The translations under genes and the position numbers were made by a program. 19,706 bases of DNA from a virus (Duplodnaviria; Heunggongvirae; Uroviricota; Caudoviricetes): positions 1-19,706 of IMG/VR virus record IMGVR_UViG_2617270940_000004, one strand, 5' to 3'. The notes under the pieces were generated by a model. That model searched no databases. It had not been told where the DNA came from and saw nothing but the letters and a program-made list of their open reading frames with translations. Below are positions 129-14,719 of the stretch, one piece after another (positions within the stretch are counted from its first letter, which is position 1; the number at the start of each line of letters is the position of its first letter).

Positions 129-322
129 CCAACGCCATTCATGGCCATATCAATGATTTTCTGGTGCGTACCGGGCTGAGAGGCGGTGTAAGTGAACTGT
201 AGTTGCCATGTTTTACGGCAGTGAGAGCAGAGATAGCGCTGATGTCCGGCGGTGCTTTTGCCGTTACGCACCACCCCGTCAGTAGCTGAACAGGAGGGAC
301 AGCTGATAGAAACAGAAGCCAC
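47..322 (-). CDS. insA: IS1 transposase subunit InsA
   Basis: 91 aa [46 protein letters not shown]... matches recalled IS1 InsA (zinc-finger N-terminus, HTH C-terminus). Confidence 0.9.
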
Positions 323-557
323 TGGAGCACCTCAAAAACACCATCATACACTAAATCAGTAAGTTGGCAGCATCACCGGCTACGCAGAAGCAGCCAAACG
401 CCCCGTGGTTGCGCCGGAAGCAATCGGGCAAGGAAGTGCTGGTGAATAAAAACGAGCACCTTGCGGACGCTGTCGCATCGATTTACACCGGTATGCAAAC
501 TGATCAATTCCGTCAGGTTCGCGATGTTCTTGCTGGAATTTTATAAGTTGATAATTG

Positions 558-577
558 ATAGGTAAGTGCTTATCTAT
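558..577. promoter_or_regulatory. Family A palindromic site (putative operator), imperfect
   Basis: ATAGGTAAGTGCTTATCTAT; near-palindrome matching recurring consensus ATAGGTAAGTAYTTACCTAT. Confidence 0.4.
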
Positions 578-587
578 TACCATGAGA

Positions 588-610
588 CCACTATATATAG
601 TGGTTTTTTT
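588..610 (+). terminator. Rho-independent terminator candidate
   Basis: Perfect hairpin CCACTATATATAGTGG (588-603) followed by T7 run (604-610). Confidence 0.6.
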
Positions 611-811
611 AATTGGGCTACACATAATAAGCATCGTAAAACGTAACGCCCACCGAGCCGCTGCCAGCTGCATGAAGCGCTGACAAAGTTCGCTGTCGAT
701 TGCACTGGCCCGAGCCAGTTCGAATACCTCTAAGCCGAGTTTAACCACTTTGTGGCTTGGCGCTGCTGGGTCAAAATTGGCGTATCAAAAGAAGTCTAAA
801 GGAAAGAAAAC

Positions 812-1690
812 ATGAAATTTACGAAACTGACCGATCATCTGAAACTTGCCGCAGACAAACTCGTGGGGTTTAAACCAGAGCCTTACGAGTTGAATCCCGG
901 TTTCGGCAAGACAACGGAAAGCATCTACCTGATGGTTGACCAGTTCCACACACTGTTTCAGCACCCACGCCGTGCCATTCCAGATCCGGCATTACTGCGT
1001 CTGCGTGCCAAGCTGATCCACGAAGAAGCAGTTACTGAGGGCATCCCGGCAGCCAAAAATGGGGATATGACGGCACTGCTGGACGCGATGGCTGACTTCC
1101 TTTACGTGGGCGTCGGCACAATGGTGGCCATCAAAGGCGGCATCTCGACGGGCATGAGTTACTACACCCAAGAGCAGAGTGTTGATCGCTTCATCCACAC
1201 CATCATGGTTCCGGGCAACACGGTCTTTGACGATATGGCTATCCCGTTTGAAGAAGCAAAAGAAGCTGCATTAATGCTGAATGCGCTGGCTGACAAACTT
1301 GAAGCGAAGCCGATAAGCGATTCCGAATTGGTGCAGGAGCTGCGCCGCGTGATGAACAAAATCTACGTTGCCTGCATGATGACCTACCGTCTGGCTGATT
1401 TTCTCGGAATCGATATTGTTGAGCTGGTGGCAGAAATCCACCGTTCCAACATGACCAAGCTGTGGCCGGCTGACGCCGAAGAGCGTCGTGTGGCGGTAGA
1501 GAATTGCAAATATGACAAGGAAGACCTGGGCTTCCGCCATGCTGAAGGGACTGACATGATGATCGGTTTCAGGGTTTCTGATGGCAAGATCCTCAAATCT
1601 CCCACCTACAGCGATGTGGATCTGACTTGCTTTGTTGAGAAGGCGAAGTCCTCATCTCTTTACGAGATGGTAAAAAATAATTGTAAGTGA
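812..1690 (+). CDS. MazG/HisE-like all-alpha NTP pyrophosphohydrolase (two tandem repeats; possibly dimeric-dUTPase-like)
   Basis: 292 aa; RBS AAGGA 8 nt upstream of ATG. Contains LIHEEAVTEGIPAAKNGDMTALLDAMADFLY (EExxE ... DxxxD pattern typical of MazG/HisE-type pyrophosphohydrolases) and a second similar half (ELRRVMNKIYVACMMTYRLADFLGIDIVELVAEI). Family call from motif recollection only. Confidence 0.5.
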   Translation: MKFTKLTDHLKLAADKLVGFKPEPYELNPGFGKTTESIYLMVDQFHTLFQHPRRAIPDPALLRLRAKLIHEEAVTEGIPAAKNGDMTALLDAMADFLYVGVGTMVAIKGGISTGMSYYTQEQSVDRFIHTIMVPGNTVFDDMAIPFEEAKEAALMLNALADKLEAKPISDSELVQELRRVMNKIYVACMMTYRLADFLGIDIVELVAEIHRSNMTKLWPADAEERRVAVENCKYDKEDLGFRHAEGTDMMIGFRVSDGKILKSPTYSDVDLTCFVEKAKSSSLYEMVKNNCK

Positions 1691-1753
1691 GTACTTATCA
1701 TTATATATTGCCTTGGCGTGTTTTATTGTCCAAGTTCTTAATTGCTCATTGCA

Positions 1754-1783
1754 ATGGTGGCCGAAGAGCCACCATTTTTTTTT
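1754..1783 (+). terminator. Rho-independent terminator
   Basis: Stem ATGGTGGC / GCCACCAT with loop CGAAGA, followed by T9 run. Confidence 0.75.
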
Positions 1784-1833
1784 ACTCCCTTCCTAGCCTT
1801 ACACACTTCTGACAGATAAACTTGTATAAAATA

Positions 1834-1853
1834 ATAGGTATGCACTTACTTAT
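1834..1853. promoter_or_regulatory. Family A palindromic site (putative operator), degenerate
   Basis: ATAGGTATGCACTTACTTAT directly upstream of the ThyA-like gene; outer ATAGGTA...TTAT conserved. Confidence 0.4.
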
Positions 1854-1870
1854 CTTGTGTGAGGTTGATT

Positions 1871-2974
1871 TTGTCTATCCTACTGAATCGAGACTTTACG
1901 AACGGTCAGTTTGCCAGTGGTTCGTATGCCAAAGTGGTTGAAACGGTGCTCAACACTGGCGTTCACGCGGGTGATCGCACCGGAACCGGCACAAAAAGTG
2001 TTTCATATGTCCCTTCCTACTACATGCTGACGGGCGGATCTGTTCCACTTATCTCCGGAAAAGCCGTCAATCTGAAGCCGTTACTGGTTGAGCTGGAGTG
2101 GTATCTCAAAGGAACAGGCAACATCCAGTTCCTGAAAGACAATGGCGTCAAAATCTGGGATGCCTGGGCCGATGAAAATGGCGATTTAGGCCCGGTCTAT
2201 GGCAAGCAATGGCGTCGGTGGGAAGACACTCGCATCGTGAGCCATAGCGAGTATCTGCGCAAAATCGACACGTTCCGTGAGCGCGGGTACAAGGTCGAGG
2301 GGTATCTGGGCGTAAGTGAAGATCGCGTTGTGTTGTCCCGTGAAATTGACCAGCTACAGCGTATCGTTGACACGCTTCGCACCAACCCTACAGATCGTCG
2401 CATCCTGCTGAATGCCTGGAATGTTGGCGAACTGGAAGATATGAAGCTGCCGCCATGCCATTTCGTGTTTTCACTGTGGAGTCGCGAGCTGGACTTTGAG
2501 ACCCGACTGACTATGGCCACCGACATTGGCATACAGCACAACCGCCACGGCCACGAGTCCATGTACACCCAGATGCTGTGTCTTCTGGAAAGAGATGGCG
2601 GCATTACTGAGAACATGCTGGACGAGCTGGGCATCCCGAAACGCATTCTGAACTCATGCCTGGTTCAACGCAGTGTCGATACCTTTGTTGGTATGCCGTT
2701 CAACATCGCCGGTTACGGCATTCTCACCCACTTCCTCGCGAAGATCACCGGCCACATGGCTGGCGCATTCGTGCATTTTGGCTTTGACGTTCATCTCTAC
2801 GACAACCACATGGAAGGCGTTGAGGAACTGATGAAGCGCGAGCCGCCCAAAGAGTCCGACCCGGTTGTCATCTTCCCGCATGAATGGGCCGAACTGGACG
2901 ACTTCAAATGGGAAGGTGTGCAGGTGTGCGGCTACAGCCCTCTTCCGTGGATCAAGGTTCCAGTGGCGGTGTGA
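1871..2974 (+). CDS. thyA: Thymidylate synthase family protein (ThyA homologue with two large insertions and an N-terminal extension)
   Basis: Contains DRTGTGT, IWDAWADENGDLGPVYGKQWRRW, DRRILLNAWNVGELEDMKLPPCHFVF (catalytic Cys in PCH), QRSVDTFVGMPFNIAGY and HLYDNHM, all matching recalled E. coli ThyA blocks. Start uncertain: ORF track gives GTG 1859, but GAGG at 1860-1863 looks like the SD for TTG 1871 (TTG 1865 also possible). Confidence 0.85.
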   Translation: MSILLNRDFTNGQFASGSYAKVVETVLNTGVHAGDRTGTGTKSVSYVPSYYMLTGGSVPLISGKAVNLKPLLVELEWYLKGTGNIQFLKDNGVKIWDAWADENGDLGPVYGKQWRRWEDTRIVSHSEYLRKIDTFRERGYKVEGYLGVSEDRVVLSREIDQLQRIVDTLRTNPTDRRILLNAWNVGELEDMKLPPCHFVFSLWSRELDFETRLTMATDIGIQHNRHGHESMYTQMLCLLERDGGITENMLDELGIPKRILNSCLVQRSVDTFVGMPFNIAGYGILTHFLAKITGHMAGAFVHFGFDVHLYDNHMEGVEELMKREPPKESDPVVIFPHEWAELDDFKWEGVQVCGYSPLPWIKVPVAV

Positions 2975-2975
2975 T

Positions 2976-3389
2976 ATGGCCAGAGGGATGTATGTGTTGT
3001 GTGAAATTGAAGGTGTGCTGGCGAGAGCCAGCCATCGCAAAGCAGTGCCTGATGCGGATGCAGGCGCTCTTATTGCCGGTGATGAACTCATCTTTCCCAC
3101 CAGCCGCATGTTGCGTGGTTTTGCTCGCTCCGGTGCTGAAGTGGTGCTTATCAGTAGTCGTCCGGAAGCGCTCGAAGGCCCAACCAAGCGCTGGCTGAAG
3201 GACTTCGGCATTGATTATGACTGGCTCCACCTGGTTCCGCGCGGTGTCAGTTTTGAAACCCATATCAAGCGCACGCTGGCAGAGCACAAAGGCGACTTAC
3301 TTATCGCCGCACTGGTTCATGATCCGCGTCTGCGTTCTGCGCTGGCAAATTCTCACCAGCGACCAACCATCTATGAGGTAAGCCAATGA
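2976..3389 (+). CDS. HAD-superfamily, NT5C-like 5'(3')-deoxyribonucleotidase-fold protein with non-canonical motif I (ExE instead of DxD)
   Basis: ATG at 2976, 1 nt after the ThyA stop; stop overlaps DHFR start (ATGA). MYVLCEIEGVLA aligns with the HAD/NT5C motif hhhhDxDGVL; later blocks (VVLISSRPEALEGPTKRWLKDFGIDYDWLHLV, LLIAALVHDP) fit HAD motifs II-IV. Weak, motif-level call. Confidence 0.4.
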   Translation: MARGMYVLCEIEGVLARASHRKAVPDADAGALIAGDELIFPTSRMLRGFARSGAEVVLISSRPEALEGPTKRWLKDFGIDYDWLHLVPRGVSFETHIKRTLAEHKGDLLIAALVHDPRLRSALANSHQRPTIYEVSQ

Positions 3390-3862
3390 AGATGATTGCA
3401 GCTGTCGGCCGCAACTATGAAATCGGCATTGGCAACGAACTTCCCTGGCGTTGCCCGACCGATCTGAAACTGTTCAAACAACTCACCAAAAACGCCACTG
3501 TCGTGATGGGACGTAAGACGATGGAAAGTCTTAAACGCCCGCTGCCAGAGAGCCATAACCTCGTTTTGACGCGCTCTCGTGGCTATATCCCCAATGGTTT
3601 CTACCCCGCTGGCATCGATGACGTTTTAAAACTACCAGATCCGGTCTGGGTGATTGGTGGCGGGCAGATTTACTCGCTCTTTATGCCACACGTTGAAGAG
3701 ATCTGGCTGTCGCATATTGGCGTGGATGTGTCGGGCGCGGATGCGTTCTTCCCGGCGCCAATGATGCGTTCTTTAGGGTTCGTACCAGTCGAAACGGCTT
3801 ATACCCAACGTGCAAATGAGGATGAGCCTGGCTTTTTGCAGATCGTATACAGAAGGTCGTAA
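3386..3862 (+). CDS. folA: Dihydrofolate reductase
   Basis: 158 aa; MKMIAAVGRNYEIGIGNELPWRCPTDLKLFKQLTKNATVVMGRKTMESLKRPLP parallels the DHFR N-terminus (IAA..IG..MPW..P.DL..FK..T....V.MGR.T.ES...PLP); VIGGGQIY matches the glycine-rich NADPH loop. GAGG RBS 7 nt upstream. Confidence 0.85.
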   Translation: MKMIAAVGRNYEIGIGNELPWRCPTDLKLFKQLTKNATVVMGRKTMESLKRPLPESHNLVLTRSRGYIPNGFYPAGIDDVLKLPDPVWVIGGGQIYSLFMPHVEEIWLSHIGVDVSGADAFFPAPMMRSLGFVPVETAYTQRANEDEPGFLQIVYRRS

Positions 3863-4506
3863 TGGATTACCGGATTGGAATCACTGGCGCACAGGGCAGT
3901 GGGAAAACAACCCTGGCAAGGTACATCGATGCGCACTATGGCATTCCGTATGTGGATGCTGGTGTTGGCAAGCTGATGAGCAGTCTGGGGGTGAAGGTTG
4001 GCGAGCGTTTGCCCCTTTACGAGCGTCTTCAGGTTCAGATGGAGATTGCCAGACACATCGAGATGATCACCCGCGGCGTTGAAGGTTTTGTCATCGACCG
4101 CACGCCAGCCGATGTCATGGCTTATACGCTTGACCTGGTCGGCCAGACCAACGAAGACCGCTGCATCGAGCTGGCTCTCGACATTGAGCAGTTTTGCCAC
4201 AAAGCGACCATTTCCAACTTCAATGCTATAGCGGGTCTTCGCCCGGGCGTTGAGCTTTCCAGCAAAGATCTCGCGCGTCCCCAGCGAGGATCGCTTGACC
4301 GTCTCTATGTTGCTCGCATCGATGCACTTATGTGTGGCGAGCTGACGAAAATTAGCGCCCTTCCCCATACCGGCGATTTGCAGGTTTTCATTATCTCTGA
4401 AAAGTGCCGCACGGTTGAGGCGCGAGCCAGATCGGTATTGCGTGTGCTGGAAAGAGCCACTGAAAACATCGAGAGCCGTATAACAGGACGAGTGACCTTC
4501 CACTGA
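3862..4506 (+). CDS. P-loop nucleotide kinase, T4 gp1-like deoxynucleoside monophosphate kinase candidate
   Basis: Walker A IGITGAQGSGKTTLA at N-terminus; FVIDRTPADVMAY resembles the PDTRQDHE region of T4 gp1 as recalled. Start overlaps DHFR stop (TAATG). Confidence 0.55.
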   Translation: MDYRIGITGAQGSGKTTLARYIDAHYGIPYVDAGVGKLMSSLGVKVGERLPLYERLQVQMEIARHIEMITRGVEGFVIDRTPADVMAYTLDLVGQTNEDRCIELALDIEQFCHKATISNFNAIAGLRPGVELSSKDLARPQRGSLDRLYVARIDALMCGELTKISALPHTGDLQVFIISEKCRTVEARARSVLRVLERATENIESRITGRVTFH

Positions 4507-4569
4507 ATGTTGTTCCCCTGTTGGGCAGTGTGACAATAAGACACGCGAAATGAATTGAGGAAAAACAGA

Positions 4570-4989
4570 ATGATAGATGAACTTCCCCTGTCGGATGAAT
4601 TAGATCGCAAAGCGATTGAAGCACTGATCCGTATTGCTGACGAACAATCCCGTTCCTTAATGAGTGAACGTGAAGCACGTCTGGCTATCCGAGCAGTGTT
4701 TGAGTCCGTTCAAGGTCTTGTTGGGGAAGAGGTTGGTGAAGCCATTAATGCGGCGATGTCGCAATTCAATGGCGGCACCAAGCGCTCTCTGTTTCCTATG
4801 CATCTCAAACTCTCGGGCGGTACGGTTTTTTATGTGTCCGTTTGCCTGGAGACTAACCAAATCCAGCTCCTCAACACGTCAACGGGCGAATGGCGTGAGC
4901 CGGTCGTCTGCGAAAGCGGCGAGGACGCACTAAAAAAGGCTGCTCAGTTTGTGCGTGGCGCACTGCTGAAAGGCGCGAAGAAGCTGTAA
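4570..4989 (+). CDS. Hypothetical protein
   Basis: ATG at 4570 with GAGGA 8 nt upstream (ORF track TTG start at 4555 lies inside the SD); 139 aa, no recognisable motif. Confidence 0.5.
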   Translation: MIDELPLSDELDRKAIEALIRIADEQSRSLMSEREARLAIRAVFESVQGLVGEEVGEAINAAMSQFNGGTKRSLFPMHLKLSGGTVFYVSVCLETNQIQLLNTSTGEWREPVVCESGEDALKKAAQFVRGALLKGAKKL

Positions 4990-4998
4990 GGAGTACCA

Positions 4999-5553
4999 AT
5001 GACCACGATTGTCGGTGGCGTCGATATTGAGTCCACGGGGCTGGACTTCACATCCGGCCACAAAATTATCGAAATCGCGATATCTCGTTATGAACTGGAA
5101 ACCCAGAAGCGCATTGACAGCCTTGAGATGCGCTTCAACCCGCGTCGTAGCATCGATCTGAAGGCGCAGGCTGTACATGGTATCTCTCTGGAAGAACTGG
5201 CTGCTGAACCGCTGTTGGCTGATCACGCAGGTAAGATTGCTGCATATATGGGGGCATGTAGCGCGTTAGTCGCCCATAACGGGGAGGCTTTTGACCTTCC
5301 GTTCATTCGCCACGAGTTCGGAAGCTATGGAGTGAAATTGCCAGAAATCCCTCTGGTTGACACTCTATTTTCCCTGTGGGCTACCGAGGATGGGAAGCGC
5401 CCACGCCTGGAAGAGCTGGCATTCTCACTTGGGTTCACTTACGACCGTGAGAAAGCCCACAGTGCTCTCTACGATACTGATCTGATGATGCAGTGTTTCT
5501 TCAAAGCCCGAGAGAAATACGGCTTCTTCAAACTCCCATTCGAAAGCGCCTGA
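4999..5553 (+). CDS. DnaQ-like (DEDDh) 3'-5' exonuclease
   Basis: Exo I DIESTGL, Exo II ALVAHNGEAFDLPFI, Exo III HSALYDTD; AAGGAG RBS 5 nt upstream of ATG. Confidence 0.7.
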   Translation: MTTIVGGVDIESTGLDFTSGHKIIEIAISRYELETQKRIDSLEMRFNPRRSIDLKAQAVHGISLEELAAEPLLADHAGKIAAYMGACSALVAHNGEAFDLPFIRHEFGSYGVKLPEIPLVDTLFSLWATEDGKRPRLEELAFSLGFTYDREKAHSALYDTDLMMQCFFKAREKYGFFKLPFESA

Positions 5554-5568
5554 TGGCGCTTTTTCTTT
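5543..5568 (+). terminator. Rho-independent terminator candidate overlapping the exonuclease stop codon
   Basis: Stem AAAGCGCC / GGCGCTTT with loop TGAT, followed by TTTTTCTTT. Confidence 0.5.
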
Positions 5569-5681
5569 GCCTCCAGTTCCTTTAACTGCCTGTAGTTATG
5601 ACTTTTCTGCCTGATAGGTTTTGCCAGAATAAGCTCAACCAAAACGCGGAAATGCACCAACGAAAACATAAGGAGTTAAAA

Positions 5682-6554
5682 ATGAGCGCAGTTTCAAACA
5701 TTGTTAAAAACGATGACCTGGATGAATTGACTGCAATGCTGCAATCTCTCGAAGAACCGGTTCTGAAAGCTGCGAAAATGAGCGGTATCGACGAGATCGA
5801 CGATCTTCTCTCTGGTCTGGATGATGCAATCGCAAAACCAGTCGAGGCGGTGGCAGATGAAGTCATGAATGTCAGCTCTACCGGCGATCTGAGTGGCGTT
5901 CTGGAAGAGCTTGAGATTGCACACGAATCGGTGAAGGTCGAGGAGCCAGAGCGTGGCCCTATTGCGGAGATAGTGGACGAGCCAACACCTGAACTTGATG
6001 CTCGAAGCGCTGAGACCACCGATATAGCTCCAACGCTTTTACCTTCAGTGGAGTCTGGGCCTAAACCTGAAGAAGAGCAGCCAAAACACCAGAAGGCACA
6101 ATCAAAGCGTGCGCCGACCAAACCTCGCTTCACGCTGGAGGGTAAGGATGAATCGTTCTATGTGACAGCCGGTCTGGATAGTGAGCGCTTTACTGCCGCA
6201 TTCGAAGGCGCGCCGATCAAAGCGAAAGACAAAATCTTAAACCTCCTGAACTGGTTTAGTGGTGGCCCGGAAATCAGCGTCTACACGGTAATCGCAATGC
6301 GCCATATTCTTGATACGAACACGGCGACCAGCAATAGCATTAAACTGGCGCTAATGAGCTACCCGGAGAAACCATATCCACTTAACACGGCTTCGACTCA
6401 GGCTGGCCAGATGATGGCTGTGTTTCCGGCCACAGGCATTGCCACCAGAGAAGGTGGAAATCTAACGCTTAATAAAGAGTCGCCGATCGTCAAAAAATTC
6501 ATAGCGGAGTATTCCATTGAACAATGTTCCTCTGCACGATCTAAAGCACCCTGA
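5682..6554 (+). CDS. Hypothetical protein with acidic, low-complexity N-terminal half and a globular C-terminal domain
   Basis: ATG at 5682 with AAGGAG 7 nt upstream (ORF track start 5598 is an upstream TTG). N-terminal ~150 aa rich in D/E/P/S/A; C-terminal part ordinary composition. Confidence 0.55.
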   Translation: MSAVSNIVKNDDLDELTAMLQSLEEPVLKAAKMSGIDEIDDLLSGLDDAIAKPVEAVADEVMNVSSTGDLSGVLEELEIAHESVKVEEPERGPIAEIVDEPTPELDARSAETTDIAPTLLPSVESGPKPEEEQPKHQKAQSKRAPTKPRFTLEGKDESFYVTAGLDSERFTAAFEGAPIKAKDKILNLLNWFSGGPEISVYTVIAMRHILDTNTATSNSIKLALMSYPEKPYPLNTASTQAGQMMAVFPATGIATREGGNLTLNKESPIVKKFIAEYSIEQCSSARSKAP

Positions 6555-6601
6555 GAGCTTTAGGACGCTGGGTAAGCTCATTGCATACCCAGCATCGATA
6601 A

Positions 6602-6653
6602 AACGCGCCAGAGAGCTTCCCGTTTGCGAATCTGGCGCGTTCTTCTTTGTTTG
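6602..6653 (+). terminator. Rho-independent terminator candidate (preceded by a second hairpin at 6568-6594)
   Basis: 11 bp perfect stem AACGCGCCAGA / TCTGGCGCGTT with 18 nt loop, followed by CTTCTTTGTTTG. Confidence 0.55.
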
Positions 6654-6677
6654 CTATCCGTTGGATTAAATGAAAAA

Positions 6678-6697
6678 ATAGGTAAGTATTTACCTAT
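6678..6697. promoter_or_regulatory. Family A palindromic site (putative operator)
   Basis: ATAGGTAAGTATTTACCTAT, near-perfect 20 bp palindrome 12 nt upstream of the methyltransferase start. Confidence 0.55.
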
Positions 6698-6709
6698 CAG
6701 AGTAAGGTA

Positions 6710-7303
6710 ATGATCGCAGCCGAAAAAATCAAAAAGCGAGAGCGTGATGCCTCTCTTCGCGACCTTTGGCGCACACCGCAGTGGTTGTTTGTCGCCATCC
6801 AACGTTACATAGGCGTAAAGTTCGATGTGGACGTCGCCTGCAACAAAGATAATGCTCTCCTGACGAACTTTATCGGTGTTGAGCGTGATGCGCTCAAGTG
6901 CAGTTGGGGAGAACCTGGCACTGTGGCGTTCCTTAACCCGCCCTACTCCAAAATCACCCCCTGGATAGATGCAGCCATTCGCGAGCAGGCGCGTGGAGTG
7001 ACGACGGTCATGCTGATACCACAATCCCTCGATACGCAGTGGTACGAGCGTGCGGCTGAATGCGCCAACGAAACCGTCATCTTGTCTGGCGGCCGCGTGG
7101 CGTTCGTTGAGCCGGATGTTGAACTTGGGCTGGTGGAGGTGAACATCAACCCTGGTGGCAGCATGTTGCTTATCTTCCGTGGCTACTGTCAGGAAGCTGG
7201 GCACACCATCAGCAAGATACCGCTGGCGGTGATGAAAAAGCTGGGTGGTTATGACCCTGCCAATGTTGTCAGGAAGAAGAGACCACGTAAAAAGGCAGCG
7301 TAA
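6710..7303 (+). CDS. Orphan DNA N6-adenine methyltransferase (phage Dam-like family, NPPY motif)
   Basis: 197 aa; DLWRTPQWLF ... FDVDVACN ... GTVAFLNPPYS follows the layout of phage-type N6-adenine MTases; no restriction endonuclease gene adjacent. Confidence 0.75.
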   Translation: MIAAEKIKKRERDASLRDLWRTPQWLFVAIQRYIGVKFDVDVACNKDNALLTNFIGVERDALKCSWGEPGTVAFLNPPYSKITPWIDAAIREQARGVTTVMLIPQSLDTQWYERAAECANETVILSGGRVAFVEPDVELGLVEVNINPGGSMLLIFRGYCQEAGHTISKIPLAVMKKLGGYDPANVVRKKRPRKKAA

Positions 7304-7505
7304 ACACCAGTCTGGGAGTTAGTTTGAGAACCTGCTTCCGTATATATAAATAACTAAGTACTAATTATTAATATATACAGACGCAGGCTTTTTAAGACGT
7401 GATTTCCAAACAACTCCCAGACCGTTTTACACCTCCAGAACCCACTGGAGCCCCTCTCCAGACGCTCTAGAATCGATTTTATGAACCACAGTAAGGAAAA
7501 CTATC

Positions 7506-7736
7506 ATGGTATACCCGACGAACGTCGTAGCGCTCGTTGAGAGCGATTTTCTGGCCACAGTGCGCGACATGATGAAAGATCGCGATAAGGCTTTCAGTCT
7601 CTACGAATGGTCGCTCAAATGTCTTCATTCAGGCGAGCACAAAGAGCTGGTGGAGCAGCTGTTAGGGGAACTCATCAATGAGGTGTTTGCCCTGAACGTC
7701 CAGCTTCATGGGCGAGAAATTAATCAATCAATATAA
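7506..7736 (+). CDS. Hypothetical small protein (76 aa)
   Basis: ATG with AAGGA 8 nt upstream; stop codon overlaps the family A palindrome at 7736-7755. Confidence 0.5.
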   Translation: MVYPTNVVALVESDFLATVRDMMKDRDKAFSLYEWSLKCLHSGEHKELVEQLLGELINEVFALNVQLHGREINQSI

Positions 7737-7755
7737 TAGGTAAGTACTTACCATT
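7736..7755. promoter_or_regulatory. Family A palindromic site (putative operator)
   Basis: ATAGGTAAGTACTTACCATT; core GGTAAGTACTTACC is a perfect 14 bp palindrome. Confidence 0.55.
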
Positions 7756-8330
7756 CAAAACGCCACTAACCAGTGATACAATCTATCCGCTTCCGGATAC
7801 TTTCGGCAGCTCGACCTGATGGGTGGGGGATAGCGTCACTGGCGTCAGGTTTAAAAAAGCTCACTACCAGCGTAGAACCGGCACCGTTTAGGGGTTGGGG
7901 AAGGGGGAACCAAAGTGGGCAGAGAGAAGGGTCACTTTATGATTGTCGAGTCTGGAGTGTTTCGAGAGGTTGAATCCAGTACTCCCCTTCATAAAGTGTG
8001 GGAAGATCTCGGTTCTGGGGTGCTGTCATCCATAACTTCCCAAGCCTAAGCTGGCAGTAGACTTAGGTCATAACTTTTCAGGTTATGAAACGACCAGGTT
8101 GGTGAGGAAATTTTGTACTCACCTCCCTGGGAGAGTATTACCTGAAAAGACAACCTCTCACTTCGTTCGAGGTGAACTTCACTCACTTCGTTCGTTCAGT
8201 TCAGGTTTTATTAAAACCTGTTCTGGGAAGTAATTTTTCTTTTCTAAAAAATTTTTAATATTTACACGCACGCGTGCGCACACGCGCGAGGGGAAAAAAA
8301 ATCGTCGCGGCGCGCGATTCTGGAGCCAAA

Positions 8331-8939
8331 ATGACGACCAAGACCCCAGCCCGGCAACATACTGGCTGCCGCACGAAGTCCAAAGCCAGATACCAAACCC
8401 ACCAGCAATCCCGTACCAACTTCAAAACCCCCGTAGTCGAGTTCAATCCCCAGCTCAAAACCGTAAAAGTATTCAGTGATGGCTCCTGCCTCAAAAATCC
8501 GGGCGGGCCGGGCGGTTACGGCATCGTTCTCCAGTATCGAGGCGAAGAGCGCGAGCTTTCTGAGGGCTTCCACAGCACGACCAACAATCGGATGGAGATG
8601 ATGGGCGCCCTGATTGCGCTGGAGCGTCTGAAGTACCCCTGCAACGTGATCCTGCATTCCGACAGCCAGTATCTTAAAAACGGCATGACGCTCTGGATGA
8701 AAGGCTGGAAGCGTAACGGATGGATCACGTCTGAGAAGAAGCCAGTCAAAAACGTGGATCTCTGGAAACGTCTCGACGCGGCCGCCAGTCGTCATAATGT
8801 CCGCTGGAAGTGGGTTAAAGGCCATGCAGGTCATCGCGAGAACGAAATGTGTGACCGTCTGGCGAAGATCGCCGCCTATTCCGCAGCTGATATGCCTCAC
8901 AAGCATGACATTGGGTTTTTGTCACAAAAAGATAAGTAA
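8331..8939 (+). CDS. rnhA: Ribonuclease HI homologue with ~45 aa basic N-terminal extension
   Basis: [75 protein letters not shown] and [20 protein letters not shown] match recalled E. coli RNase HI blocks. Start set at ATG 8331 (GGAG 5 nt upstream); ORF is open from 8274. Confidence 0.8.
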
Positions 8940-8951
8940 GTATTTACCTAC
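8932..8951. promoter_or_regulatory. Family A palindromic site (putative operator)
   Basis: ATAAGTAAGTATTTACCTAC overlapping the RNase H stop codon (TAA 8937-8939). Confidence 0.5.
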
Positions 8952-9031
8952 TATAATAAATCAGGTATCTTATAAATCGTCAGGATGACGAAGTACCGGT
9001 TAGGTACGGTTCCAGGATGGAACGCCAAAAG

Positions 9032-9052
9032 GCGGCTGGCTTGGCCAGCCGC
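9032..9052 (+). terminator. Hairpin, weak terminator candidate
   Basis: Stem GCGGCTGGC / GCCAGCCGC with loop TTG, followed by AACTCTTTCT (poor U-tract). Confidence 0.3.
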
Positions 9053-9081
9053 AACTCTTTCTGACACTGAATGGAATCCAC

Positions 9082-9582
9082 ATGGCCCGTCAAACGTCTT
9101 TCACTTCTTTCAATAAACGTCCCCGTTCAATTCGCCTGGTGCTGACCGAGCTGTTTAGTGGTCGTGTTTCCGCACGCCTTACGGAACTGGAAGAACGAGT
9201 GTTTGAACTGGAGAAGCGCATTAATGCGCAAGCTACCGCCATAGCTAATCTGGGCACGACAGTAGGCATGGAGAAGGTGCGTAATAGCGTCGCTTCTCGT
9301 GTGTTGCGTGAAACCCGGACACACAAGGACAGTTCTCATGGAAAATTTTCAACGAAATCGACTGAAGCCAATGGCCTACGGAGTGATTTTGGCAACTCTG
9401 GCAGCGATTACCGTACCAGCCGGTCAGAGCCTTTTGATGCCGGGCACAGCTACTTCCACTGCCACCACAGCCTTGCAGATGACACCCCTGCCCGAACGAC
9501 CTCCTGTCTCTCTGGATGGGATGCTGATGGACACGATTCCAGCTCGACCTGCGACTCCGGATCTTCCTTCTGCTGTGACTGA
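9082..9582 (+). CDS. Hypothetical protein with predicted coiled-coil segment; 3' half doubtful
   Basis: 166 aa ORF; residues ~30-75 (RLTELEERVFELEKRINAQATAIANLG) look coiled-coil; C-terminal third is S/D/G/C/H-rich and overlaps an alternative-frame ORF (9338-9595), so the 3' extent is uncertain. Confidence 0.35.
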   Translation: MARQTSFTSFNKRPRSIRLVLTELFSGRVSARLTELEERVFELEKRINAQATAIANLGTTVGMEKVRNSVASRVLRETRTHKDSSHGKFSTKSTEANGLRSDFGNSGSDYRTSRSEPFDAGHSYFHCHHSLADDTPARTTSCLSGWDADGHDSSSTCDSGSSFCCD

Positions 9583-9595
9583 GGCTATTGTATGA
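9338..9595 (+). CDS. Hypothetical small membrane/secreted protein (alternative frame to 9082-9582)
   Basis: ATG 9338 with AAGGA 9 nt upstream; hydrophobic segment MAYGVILATLAAITVPA; stop overlaps start of next ORF (ATGA at 9592-9595). Confidence 0.4.
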   Translation: MENFQRNRLKPMAYGVILATLAAITVPAGQSLLMPGTATSTATTALQMTPLPERPPVSLDGMLMDTIPARPATPDLPSAVTEAIV

Positions 9596-9780
9596 AATGG
9601 AACTTCCAGAAATTCACCTTGATGATTGTTGGCTTTACCGTTTTTTTGTTTAGCGGCTGGATCATGAATCTGGTGAAACTTGTGAACGATGGTGATCTCC
9701 AGTCTCATGCCGGAGTGACACTTGCGCGTGTCGTGGGCATTTTCGTTGTTCCGGTGGGCGGCATCCTCGGGTTCTTTTGA
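9592..9780 (+). CDS. Hypothetical small membrane protein (62 aa, two predicted TM helices)
   Basis: GAGG 7 nt upstream; FTLMIVGFTVFLFSGWIM and VVGIFVVPVGGILGFF hydrophobic stretches. Confidence 0.45.
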   Translation: MKWNFQKFTLMIVGFTVFLFSGWIMNLVKLVNDGDLQSHAGVTLARVVGIFVVPVGGILGFF

Positions 9781-9802
9781 TGCTGAATGATTTTCTGCAT
9801 TG

Positions 9803-9820
9803 TTAAAACAAATTGTTTAG
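9803..9820. promoter_or_regulatory. Family B palindromic site (putative operator)
   Basis: TTAAAACAAATTGTTTAG; half-sites AAACAA / TTGTTT around a central base. Confidence 0.5.
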
Positions 9821-9846
9821 ACAAATGATTAATGAGAGTTAACAAC

Positions 9847-9870
9847 AAGGGCCGCTGACGGCCCTTTTGT
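9847..9870 (+). terminator. Rho-independent terminator candidate
   Basis: Stem AAGGGCCG / CGGCCCTT with loop CTGA, followed by TTGT. Confidence 0.55.
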
Positions 9871-9886
9871 ACTGAATGGAAAACGT

Positions 9887-10702
9887 ATGTTTGAGGTAAC
9901 TGCACACGCTCCCAGCACCACAGGCTTACATGCCAGGCCATCGATGACCAGTCAGGAGATCGCCGAAATGGTCGGCAGTCGCCATGACAGCGTAAAACGC
10001 ACCATTGAAAGACTCGCTAAATCCGGCGTTATTACTTTTCCACCAATGGTGGAAAAGCCCACTGCCGGGCGTCCGGCTACCTTTTACTTGTTCGAAGCCG
10101 AACAGGGTAAGCGCGACAGTATCGTTGTCGTGGCACAGCTTTCTCCTGAATTTACCGCACGTCTTGTTGATCGGTGGAGAGAGCTTGAATCCATGTTTGC
10201 CTACCACGGAACGCCTGCTATTCCGCGTACCTATAAAGAAGCGCTGGTTCATTTGCTGCGCCAGGTTGAGGAAAACGAGCGTCTGGAGAGTGAGAACGAG
10301 GCGTTGGGCGTAGCACTATCCAACGCAAAGCCAAAAGCCATTCTCATGGACACCATTTGCGGCACTGCTGATGAACTTTATGGGTTGAATGAAGCCGGTC
10401 GCATTCTCGGCACGTCCGGGGCTGTTCTGGGTGCGCTGATGGACTCGCTGGGTGATGTGTACGTTAAGCGCAAATACACCACTGTTAACCGCCAGTTCCT
10501 CAAGATCTTCATTGACCGCGGATATGGCAAAAACGTTGTCATCGGAAACGGTCGCAACCAGGCCAAGTTCACCTTTAAAGGGCTTTGCTTTGCAGCTGTG
10601 AAACTAATTGCAGCCGGGTTGATTGCCTCCAGCGCCATTGAATATGAGCCGTGTCGTGAGCATGTCGAACGTGCAATGAAGGAATCCAAACGTCTTCATT
10701 GA
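9887..10702 (+). CDS. Phage antirepressor-type regulator (Rha-like N-terminal domain + ANT/KilAC-like C-terminal domain)
   Basis: N-terminal MTSQEIAEMVGSRHDSVKRTIERL resembles the Rha family; C-terminal ILGTSGAVLGALMDSLGDVYVKRKYTTVNRQFLKIFIDRGYGKNVV resembles the ANT domain. Start uncertain (9887 or 9944). Confidence 0.55.
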   Translation: MFEVTAHAPSTTGLHARPSMTSQEIAEMVGSRHDSVKRTIERLAKSGVITFPPMVEKPTAGRPATFYLFEAEQGKRDSIVVVAQLSPEFTARLVDRWRELESMFAYHGTPAIPRTYKEALVHLLRQVEENERLESENEALGVALSNAKPKAILMDTICGTADELYGLNEAGRILGTSGAVLGALMDSLGDVYVKRKYTTVNRQFLKIFIDRGYGKNVVIGNGRNQAKFTFKGLCFAAVKLIAAGLIASSAIEYEPCREHVERAMKESKRLH

Positions 10703-10773
10703 CCGTCAGTATGGACGTCCACCTTTATGTAGCGTTTGGCCACCTTTTCAGTCACGTCACAATAACACAATTG

Positions 10774-10791
10774 AGAAAACAACTTGTTTAA
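10774..10791. promoter_or_regulatory. Family B palindromic site with conserved upstream ATAACA box (putative promoter/operator)
   Basis: AGAAAACAACTTGTTTAA preceded by CAATAACACAATTGAG; lies ~20 nt upstream of the 10811 start codon. Confidence 0.55.
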
Positions 10792-10810
10792 AAACATAAG
10801 GAAAAAACAC

Positions 10811-11383
10811 ATGTGCGACAAATGCAAAAAAACTAATGCCAAAGTTGAAAGCGTGATTAAAAAAGTTGGTGCGGCCGAACTGGTTGAGATCATGGGTCTT
10901 GTGGCTGGTCACGAAGACGACGCCTCCCCTATTGACCGCCTTTTCAGCGTTCTCAAGTTCTCAAGCATGATTGATGATCCGATTGAAATTGTGATGCTGG
11001 CGCGTCATTTCGGCGAAGCGTATCTGGAAGAGAAAGAACGCGCCGACAAACTTCAGGCAACTCTGGAAATGGTAAGCAAGCCGAAGTGCTCACCGGATTC
11101 AGTCAAGGCAGATGAAACCAACGCCAGCAAAGATCGTGAAATCGCCGGGTTGAAGTTTTCTCTGGCGATGTTGCTGGCCGCCTTCAAACTGATGTCTTCC
11201 CAGGCTGGATTCAAAATGCCTGAGCTGAACAGCGACGATCCGATGGCCGTTCGCCAGCTGCTGGGGGCAATGGCCGACCAGCTTGACGACACCAAGAGCC
11301 GTCTTGAAGACATGATGCGCGAGCTGACCCATCGCTACGACCTGAACAAACAGCCGCAAAAGATGCAGCCTTTACATCATTAA
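10811..11383 (+). CDS. Hypothetical protein
   Basis: ATG 10811 with AAGGA 8 nt upstream (ORF track TTG start 10784 lies inside the operator motif); 190 aa, N-terminal CDKCKK. Confidence 0.5.
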   Translation: MCDKCKKTNAKVESVIKKVGAAELVEIMGLVAGHEDDASPIDRLFSVLKFSSMIDDPIEIVMLARHFGEAYLEEKERADKLQATLEMVSKPKCSPDSVKADETNASKDREIAGLKFSLAMLLAAFKLMSSQAGFKMPELNSDDPMAVRQLLGAMADQLDDTKSRLEDMMRELTHRYDLNKQPQKMQPLHH

Positions 11384-11388
11384 TATAT

Positions 11389-11405
11389 AGGGGGCAAAGC
11401 CCCCT
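11389..11405. terminator. Bidirectional hairpin between convergent genes
   Basis: AGGGGGC AAA GCCCCCT perfect stem-loop between the stop of 10811-11383 (+) and the stop of 11409-11828 (-). Confidence 0.5.
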
Positions 11406-11408
11406 ACT

Positions 11409-11828
11409 CTACTTTGCGGCGTCTAACAATAAGCCGCAATTTTCGCTCATGTATGCCGCAGTTGCCGGATTGCCTCTGTCATTATTCGAATTGTTCATTT
11501 CAGGGTGAGCGTCCCAGGCCACTGATTCCTGAGATGATAGATAGACGGCAAAGTCGACGATTTCATCATCTCCGGTTTTAACGTTGCCAAGCAATTCATT
11601 TGCCTTTCTCCAGTGCTTCAGCGCGAGAATTCTGAACTGTTTTGCATTTTCAGCAGGCACTGCACTGGATTTGTCTGTGTAGATATTCGATATGTCGGCA
11701 TAAAGAGCGCATTTAACATAGCTGGTTGCCCTGCCGGTCTCTTTAAAACGTTGCTCTGTGTTGTTGGCGTAGACATTCACAGCAAAAGCGCTGGCAATTC
11801 CCAGCAATATAATTTTCTTCATCATCAT
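11409..11828 (-). CDS. Hypothetical secreted protein with signal peptide
   Basis: N-terminus MMMKKIILLGIASAFAVNVYA is a signal-peptide-like sequence; the only substantial minus-strand gene outside the IS elements; AT-rich; no clear SD. Confidence 0.5.
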   Translation of the reverse strand: MMMKKIILLGIASAFAVNVYANNTEQRFKETGRATSYVKCALYADISNIYTDKSSAVPAENAKQFRILALKHWRKANELLGNVKTGDDEIVDFAVYLSSQESVAWDAHPEMNNSNNDRGNPATAAYMSENCGLLLDAAK

Positions 11829-11971
11829 TACTCAATAAGGAGGCGACAAATATCTTACGTGTAGTTGTCAGTTGAGTATTAAGCAAACTCAATAAACTTA
11901 TAAGTATCTCCCTGTGCAGCCTGTGAATCCTTATTTATTACCTACTCAATTTTGAAATAATAACACCAACA

Positions 11972-11989
11972 AGAAAACAATTTGTTTAA
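11972..11989. promoter_or_regulatory. Family B palindromic site with conserved upstream ATAACA box
   Basis: AGAAAACAATTTGTTTAA preceded by TAATAACACCAACAAG; ~10 nt upstream of the 12000 start codon. Confidence 0.55.
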
Positions 11990-11999
11990 TGGTGCAGTC

Positions 12000-13685
12000 A
12001 TGAATACAGCCCTTTCCATCATTGACGCTATCACTCCAAACACTGATATCGACTACCGGCAGGAAATGAACGTTATCCACGAAATTGTGGCCGAGTGCGA
12101 GAAAGAGATCGCATTCATGCATCAGGTTCACGACTTCGTTTATGGCGACGAACGCCACAGCATGATTAACCGTCTACTGCGGCTCAATCACCGGCCGGAC
12201 GACGAGCGCACACGCTTTAACAGAACCTGGCTGGACAAAGTCGACCTGGAATGGGTGAAACAAAATATCTGGGCCGAGTACTGGAAGAAGGTCACGGATA
12301 TGACCAACGTTCTGTTGATCATGCCAGCATCCCGCCGCGACGAGTGGCGTGAACAGTTTATCGAGGGCAAGCAGGAAACGATCAAGACTGACAGAACTGG
12401 CTATCAAATGAAGGTTAAAGAGTTCGTTGGTGTACCTGAGTTCAAAGCAGAAACGGTCATACCAACGATGCTTAATTTGCTGAATGACAGGCACAAATAT
12501 CTCTCTGAGCGCGTGTATGGCTTGTTTAAGGCGTTGAGTCCTGCTCACAAGACCAATAAGACGAACGGCTTCAGCGAGCGTCTGATCATCGCCGACTGCA
12601 TTTCCGATTTCTGGCGGGACAGCGTCAGCGTTAACTACCGGAAAGAGGATTACATAGACGACCTGCGCGTCATGTTGCATTTCTTTGCACACAAAGAATT
12701 TATCACCATCAATCGCACGGCCGAGATGCTGTCAGCTGCGTATCGAGCAAATGACTGCCAGACCGGCGACTGGATGAATGTCGACGGAAACCTGATGCGT
12801 GTGAAGATGTTTAAGAACGGCAACGTTCACTTTGAAATACATCCTGACGTAGCCTGGAAGCTGAATGAGGTGCTGGCTTACAGTATGCCCGCTGCAATCC
12901 CGGCTCCATGTCGTACTGCGCCCAAAACACGGGCACCAAAACAGTTCGGGTTAATCCAGAAGACGATCTCCGAGCCGGTGCGTACTGCGCTTCGCGACGG
13001 GCGATCTGGCAATGACAAACGCGTATGGTACTTCTCTGATTCCGGTCTCCAGAAGTCACAGGTGGAAGAGCTGGAGCGTACACTGAGCTTTATTGGCGGC
13101 GTGCAGGAGAACAAGCACTGGCAGTTCCCGTATGAGATCGGCCATACGCTCAATACGATTGTGGCCACCGGCGTAATACCGGATACAAAATCACACCAGT
13201 TCTACCCTACCCCGCGTTTGATAGCGGAGTACGTTGCCAGAGCCATTGAGCTGAAACCAGGTGAGAAGCTGCTGGAGCCTGAAGCCGGGCGTGGAGATCT
13301 GCTGGCCTGCATCGACGCCAACCCGGAAGACGTCACCTGCATAGAAGTCGCGCCTCTCTTTGCTGATATCCTGCTTGGCAAGGGGTACACAAATACGGTC
13401 TGCTGCGACTTCATGAAGTGGTCTGAGAACAACGCAGGCTATCAGTTCGACAAAATCGTCATGAACCCACCCTACTCTCTCGGTCGTCACAGAGAGCACA
13501 CATTGGCCGCGCTGGGGCATCTGAAAGTTGGTGGGCGTCTGGTAGCAGTGCTGCCGGGCGACGCGCCAATTCTAAACTGGATGACGCTGGATAATTACGT
13601 TTATGCCAAAGGGAAGTCGTTTACTAACGTGTTTGAAGACACCGGGATTACTGTCAGCGTATACGTTTTTAAACGCGTTAAATGA
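12000..13685 (+). CDS. Large orphan N6-adenine DNA methyltransferase (C-terminal SAM-dependent MTase domain, N-terminal ~400 aa domain of unknown function)
   Basis: C-terminal FYPTPRLIAEYVA ... LLEPEAGRGDLL (motif I) ... DKIVMNPPYSLG (motif IV NPPY). No adjacent restriction gene. Start set at ATG 12000. Confidence 0.7.
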   Translation: MNTALSIIDAITPNTDIDYRQEMNVIHEIVAECEKEIAFMHQVHDFVYGDERHSMINRLLRLNHRPDDERTRFNRTWLDKVDLEWVKQNIWAEYWKKVTDMTNVLLIMPASRRDEWREQFIEGKQETIKTDRTGYQMKVKEFVGVPEFKAETVIPTMLNLLNDRHKYLSERVYGLFKALSPAHKTNKTNGFSERLIIADCISDFWRDSVSVNYRKEDYIDDLRVMLHFFAHKEFITINRTAEMLSAAYRANDCQTGDWMNVDGNLMRVKMFKNGNVHFEIHPDVAWKLNEVLAYSMPAAIPAPCRTAPKTRAPKQFGLIQKTISEPVRTALRDGRSGNDKRVWYFSDSGLQKSQVEELERTLSFIGGVQENKHWQFPYEIGHTLNTIVATGVIPDTKSHQFYPTPRLIAEYVARAIELKPGEKLLEPEAGRGDLLACIDANPEDVTCIEVAPLFADILLGKGYTNTVCCDFMKWSENNAGYQFDKIVMNPPYSLGRHREHTLAALGHLKVGGRLVAVLPGDAPILNWMTLDNYVYAKGKSFTNVFEDTGITVSVYVFKRVK

Positions 13686-13704
13686 GAGGTAAATACTTAC
13701 CTAA
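13685..13704. promoter_or_regulatory. Family A palindromic site (putative operator)
   Basis: AGAGGTAAATACTTACCTAA, starting at the last base of the methyltransferase stop codon. Confidence 0.5.
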
Positions 13705-13747
13705 TCTATGTAAGAATATAGTGACTATATGATAAGAGAAAAAACAC

Positions 13748-14437
13748 ATGAGCAATCTTCCGTTAGAGCGTTTTAACGTCAAAAGCCATGCCGACTTTCC
13801 TTTCAAATTTGTAATGAGAGGTTATGCAGAGGAAGCAGTAGGCCAGATCATCATTGACAAAGGCATTGTTAAGTTTGAAGGGGATTATGATGAATCCGCG
13901 AAAACATTCATAGACTTCGTTGCTAAACGTTGGAGCGAGCAATGGAGAGACCTGGAAAAACGTGCTCGTGAATTTGATGTATTCATGTCTGCAATTGATA
14001 CAGAAAAAACGGCTCTGGCTGCGGGTACTCCGTTAGATTTGGAGTCTCTGTTTAAAGGTGAAATGGCCTCTGCGATGTTCGCAACCATGTTTGCCGGTGA
14101 GTTTGTTCGTAGCGGGGCCAGAAACTACCTGGAGCTGGGGTACGACGTTCCTGAAATGGGTGAGTTTACCGTCACCATTCAACGCAAAGAAGGTAAGACT
14201 CCTGGCGAACGTATCGCTGAACTTGAGGCCGTTGTGGATCAGCGTAACGGCGAGTGCGTCCGTTTGATTAATGAACGTGATGCGCTGCGCGAAGAGCAGC
14301 TAAACAAAGGCTCGAACACACGCGCGGCCGCAGACATCTACTTCCAGTTGGTTGAGGAATGCCAGATCCCGCCAGGTGGCTCTTTGGTCGAGTTCGTTCG
14401 CGAATTGCAGGAGAAAGCAGAGAGGTGCGCGGCATGA
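13748..14437 (+). CDS. Hypothetical protein (229 aa)
   Basis: Long ORF with ordinary composition; stop overlaps next start (ATGA at 14434-14437). Confidence 0.5.
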   Translation: MSNLPLERFNVKSHADFPFKFVMRGYAEEAVGQIIIDKGIVKFEGDYDESAKTFIDFVAKRWSEQWRDLEKRAREFDVFMSAIDTEKTALAAGTPLDLESLFKGEMASAMFATMFAGEFVRSGARNYLELGYDVPEMGEFTVTIQRKEGKTPGERIAELEAVVDQRNGECVRLINERDALREEQLNKGSNTRAAADIYFQLVEECQIPPGGSLVEFVRELQEKAERCAA

Positions 14438-14673
14438 ATGATCTGCTTGTCGAGCGAGTCTCCGCTTTTGTTAAGTCCCCGCTGAATAATCCCCTCACCC
14501 GCTGTGAGCAGATGGAGCTGGCAAGGTGGTTTCTGCGTATCCATGAGCAGATGGAAGTTTTTAAACAGTTGCCGGATCTGCCCATTACAGACGGCCAAAT
14601 TCAGTGTGCCACTTCAGTACGGTCGACGATGACAACGACGCAAACCTGCTTTTCGTCAAATCCGAAATCATAA
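14434..14673 (+). CDS. Hypothetical small protein, possibly frameshifted at its 3' end
   Basis: ATG 14434 with GAGAGG upstream, translationally coupled to the previous gene; C-terminal ~25 aa look non-protein-like while another frame looks protein-like (see findings). Confidence 0.4.
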   Translation: MNDLLVERVSAFVKSPLNNPLTRCEQMELARWFLRIHEQMEVFKQLPDLPITDGQIQCATSVRSTMTTTQTCFSSNPKS

Positions 14674-14719
14674 AGTTGCGCAGGGAGAGAGAGAAATCGA
14701 CGCAGAGCAGGCCCGCAAT

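Follow-up and report, generated by a model that had tools for sequence, protein, structure and literature searches.

The window analysed here is a stretch of 19,706 nucleotides (nt) from a virus of the Caudoviricetes (IMG/VR record IMGVR_UViG_2617270940_000004, positions 1 to 19,706), which its sequence relationships identify as DNA of an SSU5/pHCM2-type phage-plasmid. Our subject is the gene rnhA at 8331-8939, by homology the ordinary RNase HI gene of an SSU5-like phage-plasmid, together with the basic tail of 40 amino acids (aa) that its product carries ahead of the catalytic core. The gene and its parts are listed below, with non-synonymous divergence (pN) and the ratio of non-synonymous to synonymous change (dN/dS) where they were calculated.

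8322-8325, plus strand: Shine-Dalgarno sequence GGAG, 5 nt ahead of the ATG at 8331
8331-8939, plus strand: rnhA-type RNase HI coding sequence, 202 aa plus TAA (TAA at 8937-8939)
8331-8354, plus strand: conserved N-terminal motif MTTKTPAR, residues 1-8, dN/dS 0.20 (7 lineages)
8355-8423, plus strand: variable polycationic disordered middle of the tail, residues 9-31, pN 0.45, dN/dS 0.47 (7 lineages)
8424-8450, plus strand: conserved junction KTPVVEFNP, residues 32-40, leading into strand beta-1
8451-8882, plus strand: RNase HI catalytic core, residues 41-184, from the E. coli RNase HI alignment and the fold match
8883-8936, plus strand: variable C-terminal tail, residues 185-202, dN/dS 0.34, its last codons entering a downstream palindrome

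A preceding sequence-only reading of this stretch had called the open reading frame (ORF) as an RNase HI homologue with a basic N-terminal extension, and its coordinates and N-terminal peptide agree exactly with ours (ATG 8331, TAA 8937-8939, 202 aa). Its assignment of the RNase H core is borne out by Pfam, by NCBIfam and by alignment to the E. coli enzyme. Pfam RNase_H (PF00075) covers residues 44-182 with an E-value of 6.8e-46 (156.4 bits against a cut-off of 25.8), the NCBIfam RNase HI equivalog NF001236 scores 219.6 bits against a cut-off of 160, and residues 2-143 of the E. coli RNase HI chain align with residues 42-184 of the query. Residues D50, E89, D111, H165 and D175 correspond in this alignment to the E. 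coli catalytic residues D10, E48, D70, H124 and D134, and all five are invariant in an alignment of 30 sequences (A1). Residues W122-N141 align without gaps to the basic protrusion of the E. coli enzyme. The AlphaFold2 model has a mean predicted local distance difference test score (pLDDT) of 82.8, with the core above 90, and Foldseek matches it to E. coli RNase HI crystal structures with template modelling (TM) scores of 0.92-0.95, root-mean-square deviations of 1.2-1.5 A and 58-60% identity. Purifying selection on the core is strong (pN 0.08, synonymous changes being saturated); the C-terminal ends vary by lineage (...SQKDK, ...YNKW or ...GFLV).

Whether the tail belongs to the protein depends on the start codon, and for this the leader of the gene has to be considered.

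8265-8321, plus strand: 5' leader of rnhA, with a CG/CA tract, a G/A tract and a GC-rich palindrome
8265-8289, plus strand: alternating CG/CA tract, ACGCACGCGTGCGCACACGCGCG
8290-8301, plus strand: G/A tract of variable length (G-run plus A-run), A4 to A10 among relatives
8302-8318: GC-rich palindrome; on the minus strand the palindrome and a T8 run score as intrinsic-terminator-like

The sequence-only reading had itself named translation from an internal codon just before the core as what would undo its claim, and the comparison of related loci speaks for the long form. Between 8331 and the catalytic Asp50 the window contains no in-frame ATG, GTG or TTG (the Val codons are GTA or GTC), and an active enzyme must therefore carry the tail. 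In all 50 related loci compared, GGAG precedes the ATG by 5-7 nt. In-frame starts further upstream lie anywhere from 12 to 222 nt away depending on the locus, and five of these loci have none; the frame ahead of ATG 8331 is not conserved because the G/A tract changes in length by non-multiples of three. We therefore rejected the GTG at 8274 and longer starts, including the one behind the 254-aa protein of SSU5. An internal start was likewise rejected: the GTG found five codons before the Asp in E. coli-type variants has no Shine-Dalgarno sequence, and the 157-aa proteins that use it sit at contig ends. By these comparisons, ATG 8331 is the translation start, and Gln41 now stands where E. coli has Met1, a position that alignment marks as the ancestral start.

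The databases present a less orderly picture, with proteins of 157, 195-202, 214-224 and 254 aa; one Klebsiella record gives 222 aa, and others that start from the ATG give 195-197 aa. Those of 157 aa are truncation artefacts, each starting 19-78 nt from the end of a contig. Draft assemblies (L012, L013 and L014) repeatedly break in or just upstream of the extension-coding region, which yields such truncated 157-aa calls, and the breaks may be caused by the GC-alternating or the homopolymer tract. The RefSeq record NZ_CP110979.1 (L088, whose positions 2024-2703 equal window 8260-8939) is 100% identical to the window over 7737-8940, and labels rnhA a 'frameshifted' pseudogene. From this label, and from the spread of database lengths (157, 196-202, 214-224 and 254 aa), it might be argued that the product starts inside the frame or elsewhere, or that the gene is dead. 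We find this scarcely credible, and by the sequence evidence it is already refuted. The 'frameshift' arises only with a start forced to window 8260, which is 71 nt upstream of the ATG in a different frame; the ORF is intact from ATG 8331; its core evolves as that of a working enzyme would (pN 0.08, saturated synonymous sites); the 157-aa forms are contig-end truncations; and the window offers no internal in-frame start ahead of Asp50. Inconsistent starts and the pseudogene call alike stem from over-extended reference proteins and the variable G/A tract. Fixing the start at the conserved GGAG-ATG resolves an rnhA annotation that has so far used at least five different starts and, in some records, a pseudogene call.

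The extension proper comprises residues 1-40 (8331-8450) and contains eight Lys or Arg against one Asp or Glu, a net charge of +7, so that its description as basic holds. It is present and aligned from residue 1 in about 630 plasmid and 12 phage records, whereas alignments to RNases HI of other phages and of chromosomes begin only at about residue 38-47. Among 60 unique loci recovered through a neighbouring RNA motif (see below), 56 have an intact extension ORF, in 23 distinct sequences, and every difference in tail length keeps the reading frame, the indels being multiples of three. Conservation of the extension among homologues had been proposed as a check, and the tail passes it: its length stays at 36-40 aa, its net charge at +7 or +8, and both of its ends are conserved. 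In the MTTKTPAR codons the window differs from phage-plasmid Cyrano by three synonymous and no non-synonymous changes. At the other end dN/dS is 0.08 for residues 32-45 (7 lineages), and the F-[ND]-P of the junction is kept even in distant relatives, as FDP or FNP in L011, L018, L019 and P0092. The middle of the tail shows only 17-36% identity between major lineages. Net charge is nevertheless +7 or +8 in all eight lineages (standard deviation 0.52), whereas composition-matched random tails have a standard deviation of 2.8 and only 5e-5 of simulations were as tight, a figure to be read with the relatedness of the eight lineages in mind.

In the AlphaFold2 model residues 6-31 stay under a pLDDT of 50, residues 31-40 average about 72, and nothing ahead of residue 44 forms secondary structure. 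For the junction motif an ordered N-terminal cap is probable, running on into strand beta-1 in the model. Residues 1-43 have no Pfam match, RNase_H being the only family found at E up to 1, and a phmmer search with the 45-aa tail against 1.84 billion representative proteins returned only a 54-aa fragment of the tail itself. As far as sequence searches reach, the tail is without a homologue outside the phage-plasmid clade. A hybrid-binding domain (PF01693) was considered and rejected, with no Pfam match at E up to 1 and no predicted fold, as was a signal peptide or lipoprotein signal, since inspection reveals no hydrophobic segment and Cys13 is unconserved in other lineages. The gene itself is already known and annotated as RNase H in hundreds of records. 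In the searchable literature on SSU5, pHCM2, phage-plasmid RNase H and N-terminal extensions of RNase HI, we did not find the tail described as a feature.

We posit, giving the idea an even chance, that the tail is a flexible polycationic tether that would hold the enzyme to nucleic acid electrostatically and without sequence specificity. We infer both its binding of nucleic acid and its importance for replication; the sequence-only suggestion of a nucleic-acid-binding handle fits the conserved charge and the predicted disorder. The tail would contact nucleic acid beside the hybrid, be it the duplex flanking an RNA/DNA hybrid, an R-loop or primer RNA. It would thereby add salt-sensitive affinity and lengthen the residence of the enzyme on R-loops and RNA primers during phage-plasmid replication.

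Several observations weigh against such a tether. The core already has a basic protrusion, the counterpart of which suffices for substrate binding in the E. coli enzyme, and because this E. coli-type protrusion is in place an extra handle is not obviously needed. In a few relatives rnhA, and hence the tail, is by its absence from their sequences not essential for plasmid maintenance, since the gene is replaced or truncated: other DNA follows right after the A tract in pToe3-1 (L089 4563-6720, about 2 kb of unrelated DNA), L071, L083 and L084, and in L048 rnhA is truncated after codon 8. The recombination breakpoints of the rnhA-less relatives fall directly after the A tract. The DNA that encodes the extension is also unusual in itself. 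In the window it consists of A 0.32, C 0.40, G 0.16 and T 0.12, and across seven SSU5-group lineages of A 0.32-0.39, C 0.33-0.40, G 0.12-0.20 and T 0.10-0.15. At four-fold degenerate sites A+C across lineages is 0.69 in the extension versus 0.46 in the core. The first 39 codons of rnhA (A+C 0.72, C/G 2.47) are an outlier among the 18 genes of the window, the other 17 having A+C of 0.42-0.58 and C/G of 0.66-1.31 over the same number of codons. A constraint at the nucleotide level could thus drive part of the K/T/Q/P/R composition, and it is a serious rival to the tether because the extension DNA is so A/C-rich even at four-fold sites.

Such a constraint can be spelled out as a by-product of start-codon relocation, which we regard as a serious but on balance unlikely explanation. 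An ATG further upstream, well served by its Shine-Dalgarno sequence, would have replaced the lost ancestral Met1, leaving a peptide that is largely neutral baggage. What is selected would then be about 120 nt of unfoldable, A/C-rich and G/U-poor mRNA that favours translation initiation. A/C-rich RNA cannot self-fold, and Rho prefers C-rich, G-poor RNA, so that the stretch could also be a Rho-loading (rut-like) site coupling rnhA transcription to translation. The basic character of the tail would simply follow from the residues that A/C-rich codons specify (K, T, Q, P, H, N and R). Beyond the composition just described, which recurs in all seven lineages, the fast evolution of the tail middle (pN 0.45, with indels) is what neutral baggage would lead one to expect. 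The protein-level evidence points the other way: the charge of +7 or +8 is held far tighter than composition predicts, and the ends of the tail are under purifying selection (dN/dS 0.20 and 0.08) with many synonymous changes. The other two reading frames are less basic, frame +2 of the window being net acidic by a hand count. Furthermore, the tail DNA of the distant relatives L011, L018 and L019 is A-rich but not C-rich (C 0.17-0.24), and what these share with the window is the positive charge and not the C-richness.

The RNases HI of these distant phage-plasmids (L011, L018/P0099 and L019/P0102) carry basic, K-rich tails of 22-30 aa that end in F-D-P, and they share the one-residue insertion KNPGG[PA]GG with the window clade. 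The tailed RNase HI of L018 and L019 is directly preceded by a degenerate RNase H-like paralogue, 171-175 aa long (218-733 in L018, 2477-3004 in L019). This paralogue overlaps the rnhA start by 4-7 nt, and FSSGC or FASGC replaces the FTDGSC that holds the first catalytic Asp. A relic of such a second RNase H gene upstream in the window was sought and rejected, as tblastn found no trace of the L018/L019 paralogue. The metagenomic proteins P0093, P0094, P0098 and P0105 (298-343 aa) have tandem RNase H domains joined by a linker; tandem proteins of this kind are a possible evolutionary source of linker-like tails.

The arrangement of the tail, with conserved ends flanking a fast-evolving disordered linker, is the usual signature of short linear motifs. 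It therefore also admits a protein-docking peptide, in which MTTKTP and the junction motif, spaced by the variable linker, would recruit the enzyme to a partner such as a phage-plasmid replisome component, the host single-stranded DNA-binding protein (SSB), the sliding clamp or, in some lineages, the upstream RNase H-like paralogue. The overlap of the inactive-looking paralogue with the rnhA start in L018 and L019 suggests co-expression and would suit the last of these, but the paralogue leaves no trace in the window. Neither motif contains a clamp- or SSB-binding consensus known to us. The junction is contiguous with strand beta-1 and modelled at intermediate confidence, so that it may be part of the fold, and docking leaves the strict conservation of charge unexplained. 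We consider docking decidedly unlikely.

The tail is of biological value as a clean natural case of a disordered segment that conserves net charge and not sequence, attached to one of the best-studied enzymes. The effect of a polycationic tether on the affinity and processivity of RNase H thereby becomes directly testable.

Upstream of rnhA, in an ORF-poor gap of about 590 nt, lies a second element.

About 7789-8245 (element from 7739), plus strand: unannotated structured RNA of about 455 nt, between a 76-aa ORF and rnhA
7754-7782: promoter-like site of this RNA, TTCAAA-17-TACAAT with an upstream TG, following the family palindrome at 7739-7752

The gap is more conserved than rnhA and the flanking genes, with a per-column variability of 0.004-0.13 across 7826-8200 among 54 unique sequences. 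The plus strand folds with a minimum free energy (MFE) z of -4.3 and the minus strand with a similar z; exchanges of G-U to A-U and G-C in several helices point to a structured RNA on the plus strand. RNAalifold predicts 127 pairs, 12 of which show compensatory double changes. Shuffled controls gave 5.2 +/- 1.4 and never reached 12 in 500 trials, and slid controls gave 1-2. Where the transcript ends is suggested by a closing helix and the U-rich run behind it, which would put the 3' end near 8245. Rfam yields no match at gathering score in the whole window nor, with E up to 1, within 7600-9150; a search for tRNA and tmRNA was negative, and the literature searched on a non-coding RNA of SSU5 does not describe the element. 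RNAs occupy the same position ahead of the tailed RNase HI in L011 (600-1110) and L019 (1790-2300). They fold more strongly than the window RNA (z = -7.8 each) and are about 67% identical to each other. By nhmmer the window RNA has no homology to the L011, L018 and L019 regions, and Rfam gave no credible match for the L011 and L019 RNAs, only sub-threshold microRNA noise.

The position of this RNA invites the idea that it forms a functional pair with the enzyme, in which the RNA or its R-loop, processed by RNase HI, would prime or regulate phage-plasmid replication and the polycationic tail would tether RNase HI to the RNA or hybrid. The RNA, which has a palindrome and a promoter-like site of its own, is followed by an AT-rich stretch, the alternating CG/CA tract and the G-run/A-run. 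An RNA-primed origin of ColE1 type would have a structured transcript of about 500 nt running up to a G-run/A-run at which RNase H makes a primer; the window has a structured RNA (about 7789-8245) and a G/A tract (8290-8301), and the A tract may equally well be the T run of a terminator on the minus strand. Rfam holds the ColE1 RNA I family, and a homologue would be expected to match it; homology to ColE1 RNA I/RNA II was not found, the window having no Rfam match. The RNA is retained in relatives in which rnhA is replaced or truncated, and because it persists where rnhA is replaced it does not need this rnhA in cis. Pairing of the RNA with the extension-coding mRNA was tried and rejected, since the duplex energy of -86.6 kcal/mol is no better than that of shuffles (-87.4 +/- 4.9) or of a core segment (-94.7) and thus gives no signal. 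We hold the functional pair to be very improbable. If true, the link between RNA and RNase HI would point to RNA-dependent replication control in clinically widespread mobile elements, and the upstream RNA is probably more interesting than the tail.

At its 3' end rnhA runs into a further set of regulatory-looking elements.

8931-8952, core 8935-8948: operator-like palindrome GATAAGTAAGTATTTACCTACT, core AGTAAGTATTTACC, overlapping the TAA stop
561-574, 6681-6694, 7739-7752, 8935-8948 and 13688-13701: sites of the palindrome family GGTAAGTAnTTACC
8953-9052: conserved leader past the palindrome, with a -10-like GTATCTTA/TATAAA, a hairpin CGTCAGGATGACG and a second hairpin
9032-9052, plus strand: GC-rich hairpin of 9 bp with a loop of 3, terminator-like with a poor T run

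The family palindrome that had been noted over the stop codon is indeed there, as AGTAAGTATTTACC at 8935-8948 overlaps the TAA. The five GGTAAGTAnTTACC sites of the window compare with 0.22 expected by chance. By the ORF list four of them are intergenic and shortly precede a plus-strand unit or the RNA promoter, and the one at 561 overlaps a listed minus-strand ORF. From their sequence and placement these palindromes look like a putative operator of a phage-plasmid regulator. Related loci keep the stop-codon palindrome in the form GATA(A/G)GTA-N6-TACCTAT(C), accompanied downstream by the blocks GTATCTTA and CGTCAGGATGAC, and it lies after the stop where rnhA ends earlier (L003, L018 and L019). 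On these two grounds, drawn from comparison of the loci, we count it as part of the next transcription unit, within its promoter/operator region, and do not assign it to rnhA. That the last RNase HI codons simply read into the palindrome fits the variable C-termini. The leader at 8953-9052 is conserved in all relatives, the distant ones included.

The affiliation of the window with SSU5-type elements is seen most directly around rnhA. Positions 7800-9600 share 95.4% identity with Salmonella phage SSU5 and 81-89% with phage-plasmids of Klebsiella and Escherichia (e.g. Cyrano and pJN2-26), and pYUXYEH3934-1 matches 7737-8940 with 100% identity. At the protein level the RNase HI shows 100% identity with the one encoded by the E. 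coli plasmid pLAO18. Phage-plasmids of this type are common: 232 of 5,426 complete E. coli genomes contain the region, nearly always plasmid-borne. Orthologues with 79-100% protein identity and the same gene order are as follows.

SSU5 gp090: YP_006906722, annotated 'Rnase H', 254 aa
Cyrano CYRAN_82: 197 aa
RefSeq rnhA proteins of IncFIB phage-plasmids: for example WP_175120286 and WP_019704565

The gene sits among replication and nucleotide-metabolism genes. The upstream part of this co-oriented module encodes a MazG-like pyrophosphohydrolase, thymidylate synthase, dihydrofolate reductase (DHFR), an ATPase, a 3'-5' exonuclease and a Dam methylase. It continues through the 76-aa ORF, the gap of about 590 nt and rnhA to hypothetical genes and a Rha/Ant-type regulator. 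The DHFR gene lies at 3386-3862 on the plus strand, and its counterpart in pToe3-1 is annotated as trimethoprim-resistant DfrA51, which is reported to occur on phage-plasmids (PMC12217456).

Among known systems, E. coli RNase HI (RnhA; PDB 1RNH, 2RN2 and 1RCH) is closest to the enzyme described here. Fold, catalytic residues and basic protrusion are all the same, with 58-60% identity across 154 aligned positions. The E. coli protein has 155 aa and its Met1 stands directly before strand beta-1, whereas the window enzyme has Gln41 there with 40 residues ahead of it; the phage-plasmid clade also reads KNPGG[PA]GG where E. coli has GNPGPGG, an insertion of one residue. For the upstream RNA, its proposed pairing with RNase HI is conceptually like ColE1 RNA II or the R-loop origins of phage T4. 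As regards the tail, an N-terminal appendage of about 40 aa is also found in the type 1 RNases H that bear a hybrid-binding domain (human RNase H1, Bacillus halodurans, Thermotoga maritima and Shewanella SIB1 RBD-RNase HI; PF01693), and there the domain raises substrate binding. The window tail is unlike it in having no PF01693 match, no predicted secondary structure and pLDDT below 50, and is a disordered low-complexity segment where the hybrid-binding domain is a folded alpha/beta domain. As a tether it would thus act as a functional analogue of that domain and not as its homologue. A non-catalytic terminal extension of a bacterial type 2 RNase H is reportedly treated for its role in enzyme function in a 2013 study to which PMC4423430 and PMC4182655 refer; that extension is unrelated in sequence to the window tail and belongs to the other RNase H family, so that the likeness is one of concept only.

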